IMG/VR virus record: IMGVR_UViG_3300021254_000004
Location: 1-41,685 of that record
DNA from: a virus
Direction: 5' to 3' (one strand)
DNA length: 41,685 bases
The translations under genes were made by a program, and so were the position numbers. The notes beneath the pieces are model-generated. The model made no database searches, was not told the DNA's origin, and worked only from the letters and a program-made list of their open reading frames with translations. Positions 2,937 through 19,842 of this stretch are shown piece by piece; the stretch's first letter is position 1, and every line of letters starts with the position of its first letter.

Positions 2937-3109
2937 CCAGCAAGTTTACATTCGTCAATAATTTCTTGCTTATCCATAATGTATTCAGCAGGATTTACGA
3001 CAGCCCATTGAAATTGAGGGTCTTTGAATGTTCGTTGTAAATGTTCATCTAAATCTTCCCAAGTTTTCGTTGGAACTTTGCTAGTTGGTTTTGGTGTAAG
3101 TTTTCCCAT
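2894..3109 (-). CDS. hypothetical 71-aa protein, a stand-alone minus-strand unit inside the switch region
   Basis: ORF track. Strong SD (gaaAGGAGaagaatATG). It has its own terminator at 2811-2840 and a candidate promoter at 3145-3172. Confidence 0.65.
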   Translation of the reverse strand: MGKLTPKPTSKVPTKTWEDLDEHLQRTFKDPQFQWAVVNPAEYIMDKQEIIDECKLAGYEVSETPDGLEVR

Positions 3110-4574: not shown

Positions 4575-4603
4575 ATTTTAACATGAAACGAAAAAAAGAA
4601 CAA
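4575..4603 (-). promoter_or_regulatory. candidate minus-strand promoter TTGTTC-17-TAAAAT with TG extension (TGTTAAAAT)
   Basis: Plus-strand gaacaa at 4598-4603 and attttaaca at 4575-4583. With the 4516-4553 terminator it would give an RNA of about 50 nt. Confidence 0.35.
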
Positions 4604-13660: not shown

Positions 13661-13734
13661 AAAAAGCCAAGTCGCAATCAGCTCCTTAGCAAACGTTCTC
13701 ATTATTACTATTATAGCATAAGGAGATTGAGAAA

Positions 13735-14208
13735 ATGCGACTTTTTCAGGACATAGATAAGGTTTTAACAAAACGCAACGCTTACGAGGTGCTTTCTCTT
13801 TATCGTCGCTATTCTCGCATGGCTGGCGAAGAGTATACACCTAAAATTACAGCGACTTACTCGCTAGAACCTAAAGCGTCAGGATTTAGCAATAGCAAAC
13901 GAACAGAAATCCAAGTAACTAGACGTGTAGCGGCTTGGGACGAAATGCAAGCAATTACGAAAGCAATTAACCGCATTATTGACCCGTTCGTAAGACAAAT
14001 TTTGATTGAGAAATATTGTAAATGGCAAATTAAATCAGATTGCGAAATCTACATGGAGTTAGGCTACTCTGAAAGCGAGTTTTATCGCATGCTTGAGCGC
14101 GGAGCGGTCGAGTTTGCGGAATGTTATCGAGGTGGAGAGTTGTTGGTCTTCCGAATTGGGAGAGAAGAGCAAGAAAATAGCTGGGATAACAACGTTTCTG
14201 AGTGTTAA
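13735..14208 (+). CDS. arpU: ArpU/RinA-type late-gene transcriptional regulator
   Basis: It is the last early gene, directly upstream of terS. AYEVLSLYRRYSRMAG...SESEFYRMLERGAVEFAECY resembles ArpU-family proteins by recollection. Confidence 0.7.
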   Translation: MRLFQDIDKVLTKRNAYEVLSLYRRYSRMAGEEYTPKITATYSLEPKASGFSNSKRTEIQVTRRVAAWDEMQAITKAINRIIDPFVRQILIEKYCKWQIKSDCEIYMELGYSESEFYRMLERGAVEFAECYRGGELLVFRIGREEQENSWDNNVSEC

Positions 14209-14211
14209 AAT
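14203..14211 (+). promoter_or_regulatory. extended -10 element TGTTAAAAT overlapping the arpU stop codon
   Basis: It is the same 9-mer as at 837-845 (+) and 4575-4583 (-). No good -35 is present. Confidence 0.3.
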
Positions 14212-14237
14212 CATATTATAGAAAAAAATAGCATAGA

Positions 14238-14324
14238 GCGCGACATTGTCACCTGTGTTAAAGCGGTCGCGCCGCAACATATGGGAGCTTGCCGTAATGC
14301 GAAAGCTAGCAGCACTGTATGTTG
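14238..14324 (+). ncRNA. structured leader: two 7-bp helices (one enclosing a 5-bp helix) immediately 5' of the tRNA
   Basis: GCGCGAC 14238-14244 pairs with GTCGCGC 14266-14272. CAACATA 14275-14281 pairs with TATGTTG 14318-14324. AGCTT 14286-14290 pairs with AAGCT 14303-14307. Confidence 0.4.
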
Positions 14325-14326
14325 GT

Positions 14327-14398
14327 AGGGATATAGCAAAGGGGTGAATGCGACAGACTTTTAATCTGTAGGCGTAGGTTCGAATCCTACTTTCCCTG
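14327..14398 (+). tRNA. tRNA-Lys (anticodon UUU), divergent
   Basis: Hand-folded cloverleaf. The acceptor stem agggata/tttccct has 6 of 7 pairs, with a T-T mismatch. The D stem has 3 bp with GG in the loop. The anticodon arm is acaga-cTTTTaa-tctgt. The T arm is gtagg-TTCGAAT-cctac. No CCA is encoded. Confidence 0.6.
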
Positions 14399-14403
14399 TT
14401 TCG

Positions 14404-14430
14404 GTCACACGTTCGTGTGGCTTTTTTATT
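14404..14430 (+). terminator. intrinsic terminator 35 nt upstream of terS
   Basis: The stem gtcacac (14404-14410) pairs with gtgtggc (14415-14421) over 7 bp, with loop gttc. It is followed by TTTTTTATTT. Confidence 0.8.
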
Positions 14431-14465
14431 TATTTGAGATTGAGAGGTGATGGAAAATCGCTAAA

Positions 14466-14888
14466 ATGACCATAAAACAGCAACGTTTTGCCGACGAGTA
14501 CATCATTTCGGCAAATGCAACGCAAGCAGCTATTAAAGCGGGTTACAGCCAAAAATATGCGAATACGAATGCAAGTAAGCTACTACAAAATACTACAATC
14601 AAATCTTATATAGATGAGCGTTTGGCTGATTTGCAATCAAAAAAGGTCGCAGACCAGCAGGAAGTGCTTGAGTATTTGACGTCGGTCATGCGTGGCAAAG
14701 AAACCGAGCAGACCATTATTGGCGTCGGTGATTTCGGCCAAGAATTGACCGATATCGAAGTTAGTGCTAAAGACCGTATCAAAGCCGCAGAACTTCTCGG
14801 AAAACGTTACAGAATGTGGACCGACAAGCAAGAAGTTGAGGTGCAAGGAACGGTGGTGTTCGCTAATGAAGACGACATCGCAGACTAA
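14466..14888 (+). CDS. terS: terminase small subunit (P27/Terminase_2 type)
   Basis: MTIKQQRFADEYIISANATQAAIKAGYSQKYANTNASKLL is canonical for this family. Confidence 0.9.
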   Translation: MTIKQQRFADEYIISANATQAAIKAGYSQKYANTNASKLLQNTTIKSYIDERLADLQSKKVADQQEVLEYLTSVMRGKETEQTIIGVGDFGQELTDIEVSAKDRIKAAELLGKRYRMWTDKQEVEVQGTVVFANEDDIAD

Positions 14889-19619: not shown

Positions 19620-19648
19620 AGCACTATCTAAATGATGGTGCTTTTTTT
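19620..19648 (+). terminator. intrinsic terminator T1
   Basis: 9-bp stem agcactatc (19620-19628) with gatggtgct (19634-19642), followed by a T-run through 19648. Confidence 0.8.
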
Positions 19649-19657
19649 ATACCCAAA

Positions 19658-19687
19658 AAGTCGTAGAAATACGGCTTTTTTTGTTTT
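19658..19687 (+). terminator. intrinsic terminator T2
   Basis: Stem aagtcgta-gaaa-tacggctt, followed by TTTTTGTTTT. Confidence 0.7.
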
Positions 19688-19758
19688 GCGCTCTTAGTCT
19701 AACGGAAAGACGTTGGTCTCCAAAACCAAAAATATGGGTTCGATTCCTATAGAGCGTG
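19688..19758 (+). tRNA. tRNA-Trp (anticodon CCA)
   Basis: Hand-folded cloverleaf: gcgctct / gtct-aacggaa-agac / ttggt-cTCCAaa-accaa / atggg-TTCGATT-cctat / agagcgt. The anticodon and T arms resemble bacterial tRNA-Trp. Confidence 0.85.
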
Positions 19759-19842
19759 TTCGCCAAGACAAGGCGTTAAATTGTCAACATTATTCAAATT
19801 CTCGTGGTCGTCTCACGTAAAAATGACGTAGAAGGAGAACAA

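Follow-up and report, generated by a model that had tools for sequence, protein, structure and literature searches.

The stretch of DNA studied here (the window, 41,685 nt) covers positions 1 to 41,685 of the IMG/VR virus record IMGVR_UViG_3300021254_000004 and comes from a temperate phage of the Streptococcus equinus/bovis group; between positions 13700 and 14900 it shares 97% of its nucleotides with Javan202 and 94% with Javan215. We analyzed the 257-nt gap that separates arpU from terS, both coded in the plus strand. The arpU gene (13735-14208) codes for a late-gene regulator of the ArpU (Ltr) family (TIGR01637, 99 bits against a cutoff of 43; phrog_248, transcriptional activator, E = 5.5e-40), and terS (14466-14888; PF03592, E = 1.5e-34, with the match starting at profile position 1) is the first late gene. 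An ArpU-family regulator gene directly upstream of terS (TIGR01637, PF03592) is a feature of Ltr/ArpU late promoters, as is a terminator in the gap, which we found here and likewise in phages phi11, phiFL2A, 858, and phiS10 and in the sister phages described below, which lack the RNA leader. The locus belongs to the Ltr/ArpU late-control family.

A first-pass annotation of this DNA had described in the gap an extended -10 sequence, two 7-bp helices, a tRNA-like cloverleaf, and a strong terminator, and all of them are present where it had placed them. The first helix (P1, 14238-14272, plus strand) forms a hairpin with the stem GCGCGAC/GTCGCGC and a conserved loop, ATTGTCACCTGTGTT (inverted repeat I16, perfect at 14238-14244/14266-14272), and the second (P2, 14275-14324, plus strand) has a 10-bp outer stem, an inner stem, and a GAAA-capped tip (inverted repeat I17, with seven perfect pairs at 14275-14281/14318-14324). 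The cloverleaf (14327-14398, plus strand) is a real tRNA-Lys(UUU), with 71.2 bits against the RF00005 gathering threshold of 29 and an ARAGORN call of Lys (ttt). Its first pair is A1-U72, the discriminator is G73, CCA is not encoded, and there is a U6-U67 mismatch; this combination is unusual for a bacterial tRNA-Lys and may affect processing or charging (A73 is found in tRNA types C and D of the relatives). Within the window, only the two tRNAs reached Rfam gathering thresholds. The terminator (14403-14430, plus strand; detected in a terminator scan, with a folding energy of -10.7 kcal/mol) consists of an 8-bp stem, GGTCACAC/GTGTGGCT (14403-14422), a GTTC loop, and the tract T6ATTT, and ends 35 nt before the terS ATG. 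Its stem, GTCACAC/GTGTGGC, is conserved behind different cargo in phages of the S. bovis/S. equinus complex (SBSEC) and of S. suis.

At the upstream end of the gap, overlapping the last nucleotides of arpU, we found a late-promoter-like motif, TGTTAAAAT-C-ATATTAT (14203-14219, plus strand), that combines an extended -10 with a second -10-like hexamer. The first-pass annotation had drawn attention to the recurrence of TGTTAAAAT, which is indeed present at 14203-14211 and 837 in the plus strand and at 4575 in the minus strand; three occurrences are nevertheless within chance, as 1.5 are expected and 18 of 100 shuffles had at least three. The significance of the motif comes instead from the longer TGNTAWWATNRTAWTRT, which has a single exact match in the window and, with one mismatch allowed, two matches against 0.26 expected. 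A general form, TGnTAwwAT-n-rTATTrT, lies directly after the ltr gene in many phages of Enterococcus and Streptococcus, 18 nt downstream of the regulator boxes, and occurs once per locus, just past ltr, in phages of S. suis, S. pyogenes, S. pneumoniae, S. thermophilus, and E. faecalis. It reads TGTTAAAATCATATTAT in the window (S. equinus group), TGTTAAAATAGTATTGT in phiS10 (S. suis), TGGTAAAATAGTATTGT in phiARI0285-1 (S. pneumoniae), TGTTATTATAGTATTAT in Javan530 (S. pyogenes), TGGTATTATTATATTAT in 858 (S. thermophilus), and TGCTAATATAGTAATAT in phiFL2A and phiFL3B (E. faecalis). After the RinA-family genes of Javan264 (S. infantarius; TAAAATGCGATATTAT) and phi11 (S. aureus; TTAAATGAGATATTAT) we detected by eye near-matches with a 3-nt spacer. 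A spacer of 1-3 nt separates the conserved second hexamer from the first and places it at about -4 to +2 of the predicted transcript, compared with +1 to +6 or beyond for a pause element.

Within the 3' end of arpU (14169-14185, plus strand) we read two putative ArpU boxes, AGCAAG and AGCTGG, 11 nt apart. The same arrangement, two GCWRG boxes with an 11-nt period and the last one 18 nt before the TG of the motif, was read from the sequences of the window, contigs L028 and L031, and phiARI0285-1, and phiFL2A and phiFL3B have the same geometry with three TTGGCGG boxes, the phiFL2A motif starting exactly 18 nt past the last repeat. The phiFL2A repeats are absolutely required for ArpU-dependent terS expression, and in chimeras the repeat block was functional when fused to unrelated downstream DNA of different size (PMC3753634). 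The 59-nt block defined in phi11 contains the motif. A fixed distance of 18 nt is what would be expected if the motif were the -10 of an ArpU-dependent promoter, and so we infer that ArpU binds to the boxes at 14169-14185 and predict a transcription start at ~14218-14226.

The comparison with close relatives shows that what follows the motif is exchangeable. Four sister phages (L022, L026, L040, and Javan226) have an arpU gene 84-93% identical to that of the window and the same promoter motif, and two of them (L022 and L040) the same terS, but they have neither leader nor tRNA, just a small terminator hairpin ahead of the same ribosome-binding site (RBS); the leader covariance model had no match in them. 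The window and these sisters share the motif and AGAAAAAAT, then diverge, and reconverge at GGTGATGGAAAAT. As the shared flanks diverge and reconverge in this manner and each version carries its own terminator, we consider the cassette a replaceable unit. Across all loci the distance between motif and terS ranges from ~95 to ~800 nt. The motif is followed by ~40 nt in L022 and 858, ~215 nt in the window, ~450 nt with a tRNA-like cargo in phiS10, and ~730 nt in phiFL2A (a hairpin with a T-run, a tRNA-Arg, and a terminator), by several T-arm-like motifs in Javan530, and by an annotated GOLLD RNA in phiARI0285-1. An intrinsic terminator was found 20-35 nt before the terS RBS, whatever the cargo, in every locus for which the stretch examined included terS (in Javan530 and phiARI0285-1 it ended before this gene). 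We put at about even odds that, in the window, 14222-14430 is such a cargo cassette within a transcribed late-operon leader, formed by a ~105-nt structured RNA (P1 plus P2), tRNA-Lys(UUU), and its own terminator.

A structured leader of another kind comes immediately behind the motif in other ArpU phages (L072, 1393-1480; L070, 1395-1480; L032-L034, ~2987-3085; L147, 1187-1262). A 10-bp helix, in which S. pyogenes Javan530 differs from the S. suis/SBSEC phages by three compensatory changes, closes the GAGAAGAGATA leader, and that of phiFL2A has a closing helix of 14 bp (-25 kcal/mol). A 5' domain closed in this manner behind the late promoter seems to be a recurrent feature. The gap can also contain odd tRNA-like cargo (L033, 3078-3188; L034, 3079-3189; L028, 1127-1197; L070, 1480-2200), some of it 111-nt tRNA matches (43 bits) in which a T-arm-like hairpin is added and the anticodon loop reads GGGGAAG, and in one case a borderline tRNA of 30 bits with a long insert; ARAGORN called none of this tRNA-like cargo. 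In Javan530 the non-coding DNA extends over more than 900 nt and includes several T-arm motifs, GGTTCGATTCC. In phiARI0285-1 (L071, 2102-2220), GenBank annotates a GOLLD RNA ~750 nt downstream of arpU, and the 119 nt examined did not reach the Rfam gathering score; if true, the slot would be able to hold a very large structured RNA. In some relatives a 290-amino-acid open reading frame (ORF) is inserted between leader-tRNA-Lys and terS, within the late leader (L019, 3284-4156), with only a sub-threshold match to DUF7946 and no PADLOC hit.

We sought the leader in viral, genome, and metagenome collections and recovered ~13 distinct variants, all from SBSEC prophages or from metagenome and uncultivated-virus contigs. 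In an alignment of 11 homologues, the P1 and P2 positions are paired in 95.3% of the cells, against 14-52% with slid partners, and three pairs have changed on both sides, which upholds the two helices of the first-pass annotation. P1 is paired in 100% of the cells in 10 homologues, with G-C, A-U, and G-U variants, and is missing in contig L053; one pair of the P2 outer stem appears as C-G, A-U, U-A, and U-G. All variants have the same 32-nt P2 core (14284-14315) except that of L053, whose two changes fall on positions that the RNAalifold consensus leaves unpaired. The stems drift and the tRNA bodies differ while the P2 core stays invariant. The association with the tRNA is strict. P1/P2 are always directly 5' of tRNA-Lys(UUU), in all ~13 variants and with four different tRNA bodies, and P2 stops 2 nt short of tRNA position +1 in every case, with a U at -1. 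The regulator upstream is of the ArpU family in the window and of the RinA family in Javan264 (TIGR01636), and in L053 P2 alone accompanies tRNA-Lys among unrelated small genes, in a non-late context. Leader clades and tRNA bodies are reassorted among the variants. The strict link to tRNA-Lys(UUU), the fixed tRNA junction, and the invariant core suggest that the leader acts together with the phage tRNA-Lys.

A search of 14100-14500 against Rfam gave no family match covering 14209-14322 at E <= 10, T-box, rrn boxA, GOLLD, and ROOL included, and the covariance model of the leader found it nowhere else in the 27 sources searched. By these comparisons, the leader is a new, narrowly distributed, tRNA-linked RNA absent from Rfam. 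Several apparent relationships were discarded. A sub-threshold Rfam match to SpF41 (28 versus 52 bits) covers only the tRNA and the terminator. Extra matches to the 16-mer GCCGTAATGCGAAAGC in viral contigs are chance or correspond to a GAAA hairpin in domain 1 of group II introns (RF02005), and are not homologues. A 19-mer scan of one genome per species returned S. equinus only, apart from two uninspected and presumably chance matches (a cyanobacterial metagenome-assembled genome and a Cohnella genome). As for possible partners, no complementarity to the P1 loop or the P2 core above chance was found elsewhere in the window. An 11-nt match of the P2 core to terS (I3) is lost in L027, a relative with a different terS 5' region. 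By eye, UUGUCACCU of the P1 loop (14247-14255) is complementary to AGGUGAUGG at the terS RBS and the start of a small ORF (14446-14454), with six Watson-Crick and three G-U pairs; we rejected this pairing as a generic anti-Shine-Dalgarno match, and conservation of the loop extends to loci in which a gene other than terS comes next downstream. In clade 2, the P1 loop contains UGUGUUUUAACGA, which by eye agrees with 9 of 13 positions of the E. coli boxA consensus, maybe by coincidence. T-box, boxA, and anticodon-loop decoy ideas were dropped, with no model match and no CUUUUAA-type hairpin.

The late operon contains a second place where terminators and tRNAs meet. The first-pass annotation had reported further strong terminators at 19620-19687, and the scan confirmed two tandem ones in the plus strand (19620-19680), at 19620-19642 and 19655-19680, with -12.8 and -11.3 kcal/mol. 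A tRNA-Trp(CCA) (19688-19758, plus strand; Rfam and ARAGORN) follows directly, and no plus-strand promoter lies in between. The double terminator is conserved in relatives, including a leaderless phage; in L022/L086, one leaderless contig, it precedes a tRNA-Cys, rather than tRNA-Trp, ahead of the scaffold gene. This region (19620-19842; L076-L090 in the relatives) looks like a second RNA cargo slot before the scaffold gene, with two terminators and then a promoterless tRNA of varying identity: Trp in the window, Cys in L079, L082, L085, and L086, and in L078 a tRNA-like sequence not detected as tRNA. After tRNA-Trp there is an ~80-nt element (19760-19840) with the hairpins CGCCAAGACAAGGCG and CGTCTCACG..GACG, conserved even in relatives with 58-61% identical proteins.

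Our preferred reading, to which we assign a probability of about 0.5, is that late transcription starts in an ArpU-dependent manner near 14218-14226, that most transcripts end at 14430, and that P1/P2 do not decide read-through. ArpU would bind the two boxes at 14169-14185 and drive the extended -10 promoter at 14203-14211. Most transcripts would stop at the 14403-14430 terminator, and the resulting precursor would be cut by RNase P at 14326/14327 into tRNA-Lys and a two-hairpin leader RNA of ~105 nt, with its 3' end at the foot of P2. A fraction of the polymerases would pass into terS and later through the terminators at 19620-19680, either by leakage or as polymerase modified at the promoter. 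P1/P2 would be a conserved RNA domain linked to tRNA-Lys and not a determinant of read-through. A start next to the boxes that runs through cargo and terminator is favored by the box-motif geometry, the chimeras, the phi11 block, and the presence of variable cargo before a constant terminator. Read-through would be needed because a terminator always precedes the terS RBS and because tRNA-Trp or tRNA-Cys lies behind two terminators with no promoter between. As the leaderless phages keep a terminator before terS, and the L022/L086 contig the internal double terminator as well, these appear to be passed without any need for P1/P2. The suggestion of the first-pass annotation that late transcription starts upstream of the terminated leader and must pass the terminators probably holds, given the fixed 18-nt geometry, the constant terminator, and the variable motif-terS distance.

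Some points weigh against this reading. The RNase P cut right beside a stable helix is assumed. The covariation of the helices is moderate support and not proof, with ~4-5 independent lineages from one host group, and the single-sequence fold of the leader is not unusually stable compared with shuffles (z = -0.57). What the leader does is a guess, the best one being a stable RNA or a processing/stability module acting together with the phage tRNA-Lys. The terminator stem is conserved without covariation behind different cargo, which fits a sequence-specific role, and overlaps a weak promoter candidate (GTCACA at 14404-14409, 17 nt, TATTTA at 14427-14432; 8/12 matches, read from the sequence and unscored). 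Last, in phi11 and 80alpha the 5' end that depends on RinA was mapped by 5'-RACE (rapid amplification of cDNA ends) to 23-24 nt ahead of terS (PMC3152322), which in phi11 is ~20 nt past a strong terminator of -14.4 kcal/mol. By analogy, a start of this kind would fall here at ~14440-14443 and the cassette would either stand as a unit of its own or form the end of the arpU transcript.

These RACE data are the basis of the most serious rival, in which late transcription begins at ~14440, 23-27 nt from terS, at a position that closely follows the 14403-14430 terminator or overlaps it. Leader, tRNA-Lys, and terminator would then either form the tail of the arpU (middle) transcript or constitute a small independent tRNA unit, and ArpU, bound upstream, would activate at a distance; it is a variant of the null hypothesis of the first-pass annotation, a stand-alone tRNA transcription unit. 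The published Ltr model agrees with it in setting the start ~23 nt before terS and regarding the terminator as that of ltr (PMC3152322, PMC3753634). The conserved GTCACAC/GTGTGGC stem lies at a constant 16-17 nt from TATTT(A/T), like a -35/-10 pair, and a promoter ahead of arpU (13686-13714) could supply the tRNA. Nevertheless, the candidate promoter matches just 8 of 12 consensus positions, the box-terS distance of ~95 to ~800 nt is hard to square with a position-dependent activator, and the motif stands at a fixed 18 nt from the boxes, like the -10 of a box-dependent promoter. In the leaderless sisters and in S. thermophilus 858 there is no -10-like hexamer, or no room for one, between terminator and RBS, so it is not a general solution. 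All in all we judge this rival somewhat unlikely, although a serious one for the window. The locus otherwise shares with Ltr activation of terS (RinA/ArpU/LtrC) the ArpU-family regulator, direct repeats at the end of ltr (here the putative boxes), and the ltr-terS terminator (PMC3152322, PMC3753634), and in phiFL2A and phi11 the repeats are likewise followed by the motif; it differs in that the boxes of the window are inside the arpU coding region and in that the comparative anatomy suggests a box-adjacent promoter, with cargo and terminator inside the transcript.

The sequence between the terminator and the coding region of terS bears on the same question. The claim that no usable promoter fits there stands in so far as the sole sigma-70-like match, TTGAGA-16-TAAAAT (14440-14467), overlaps the ATG with its -10 and is not conserved in relatives, but it has to be qualified by the weak candidate that overlaps the terminator. 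The stretch 14444-14465 (plus strand) contains, as read from the sequence, an RBS, GAGGTGAT, and a mini-ORF of four codons, ATG GAA AAT CGC TAA (14450-14464), that stops 1 nt before the terS ATG, leaving the terS start 18 nt from the RBS. GGAGGTGATGGAAAAT is conserved ahead of different terS types, with mini-ORFs MEN*, MENR*, and MENH*, and the terS start in relatives is ATG, TTG, or, apparently, TTA; in phi11 the analogous ATGAAATGA overlaps the terS ATG. This arrangement suggests that terS translation is coupled to the mini-ORF.

An alternative that we consider unlikely is that ArpU works as lambda Q does, loading onto the polymerase at the motif and conferring processive terminator resistance, with the stretch from motif to terminator being a 6S-like cargo slot. 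Much of the anatomy can be read in this manner, as the promoter directly adjoins the regulator gene, phages from Staphylococcus to Streptococcus have kept two tandem -10-like hexamers, a terminator is always kept after the motif with any cargo, and further terminators of the late operon have tRNAs directly downstream. The published reporter data (boxes required, Pcad read-through blocked without Ltr, downstream DNA interchangeable) fit an antiterminator or an activator alike (PMC3152322, PMC3753634). On the other hand, leaky terminators explain the same anatomy, the phi11 and 80alpha RACE data point the other way, and the second hexamer (~-4 to +2) is outside the initially transcribed region where sigma-dependent pause elements are found. 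ArpU itself has no sequence or fold similarity to Q proteins: Pfam, NCBIfam, and PHROG gave no Q-type match (with Pfam there was no significant match of any kind), a sequence search of the PDB gave none, and its AlphaFold2 model (pLDDT 80) had no Foldseek match in the PDB below E = 1. A PHROG search found no antiterminator gene among ten early ORFs either.

By analogy, the layout of the window is most like the PR'-6S (StxS)-tR' region of lambda and Stx phages. In both, the regulator gene immediately precedes the late promoter, the late genes come after a short terminated transcript (here at the level of sequence, from the motif at 14203-14219 to the terminator at 14403-14430), and the late operon is long and has internal terminators. 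Stx phages carry tRNA genes in the same late leader region. The differences are that the regulator here is of the ArpU family and falls outside the Q proteins, that in the window the tRNA lies before the first terminator, and that the second -10-like hexamer is outside the position of sigma-dependent pause elements. The short terminated transcript of Stx phages can itself be a functional RNA (PMC7547250). A wider proposal, that ArpU and RinA proteins start transcription at a box-adjacent promoter and make it terminator-resistant like lambda Q, that the slot carries tRNAs, tRNA-like RNAs, and GOLLD, and that P1-P2 works with tRNA-Lys, for instance against tRNA-Lys-targeting defense, seems to us decidedly doubtful.

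The first-pass annotation had proposed P1/P2 as a cis-acting antitermination element, similar to the put RNAs of HK022, that would make the polymerase resistant to the terminators at 14403 and 19620-19680. As in HK022, there are two adjacent stem-loops directly downstream of a likely late promoter and upstream of terminators, their structure is conserved with some covariation, and the strong conservation of loops and core is as would be seen in a protein-contacting RNA. However, P1/P2 track tRNA-Lys(UUU) and not the terminators: they are absent from sisters that have a 91-93% identical arpU, the same motif, and a terminator before terS (with the internal double terminator as well in the L022/L086 contig), they accompany tRNA-Lys also behind a RinA-family regulator and in the P2-only, non-late context, and other ArpU phages have unrelated leaders or none. 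We know of no sequence relation between the put RNAs and P1/P2, and on the distribution alone we consider this function very unlikely. Finally, the conserved core could function as DNA and not as RNA, for example as a recombination junction or a site for protein binding. This would agree with its invariance between mosaic flanks and the reassortment of leader clades and tRNA bodies, but we give this hardly any credit because stem positions change with complementarity kept, orientation and spacing to the tRNA are fixed, and the core is always on the transcribed strand, between promoter-like motif and terminator.

If the leader acts with its tRNA, two groups of known systems are relevant. Phage tRNA-Lys genes counter defenses that cleave tRNA-Lys, such as PARIS/AriB and PrrC-type anticodon nucleases (PMC11464382, PMC10264068). 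The window has in common with them a tRNA-Lys(UUU) of the phage itself, with a body unlike the typical host tRNA-Lys. To our knowledge, a structured and conserved 5' extension has never been described for a counter-defense tRNA-Lys of this type, and by this analogy a link of the leader and tRNA-Lys to counter-defense may be taken as a lead, not as a result. The second group comprises tRNA-linked non-coding RNAs. T4 species 1 and 2 and MALAT1/mascRNA are likewise structured RNAs cotranscribed with a tRNA, where RNase P would set the 3' end, and GOLLD and ROOL adjoin phage tRNAs, the annotated GOLLD of phiARI0285-1 being in a non-coding stretch downstream of arpU. Unlike these, the leader of the window is far smaller (~105 nt), has no Rfam match, and is found only with tRNA-Lys and in one host group.

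Two observations concern the regulator gene itself. Ahead of arpU there is a sigma-70-like promoter, TTAGCA-17-TATTAT (13686-13714). In the same region (13686-13730), the sequence TATTATAGCATAAGGAG is similar to that with which the late leader begins (TATTATAG...AGCATAGAG; in clade 2, AACATAAGG), and the likeness may be a trace of duplication. In addition, short contigs of 9-10 kb (L035-L038) code for ArpU proteins 72-76% identical to that of the window and resemble Javan203, an annotated satellite prophage with a 72% identical ArpU. Each has a strong terminator after the ArpU gene and no terS, which suggests that they are satellites tapping the late promoter of a helper phage.

For the Ltr family as a whole, it has been a puzzle since 2011 how RinA and ArpU exert their effect over the more than 155 bp that separate their sites from the mapped late 5' end downstream, a distance that in phiFL2A grows to ~800 bp, with terminators and a tRNA between. 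The order found here, boxes, 18 nt, an extended -10, variable cargo, and an obligatory terminator, offers a concrete and testable alternative, in which transcription would start next to the boxes and pass the terminator. In addition, an RNA core of 32 nt that is invariant while the attached tRNA-Lys body changes represents a narrowly distributed and unexplained RNA that may relate to tRNA-based counter-defense. The interest of the locus lies mainly in that it makes the old promoter-distance puzzle of the Ltr phages directly testable.

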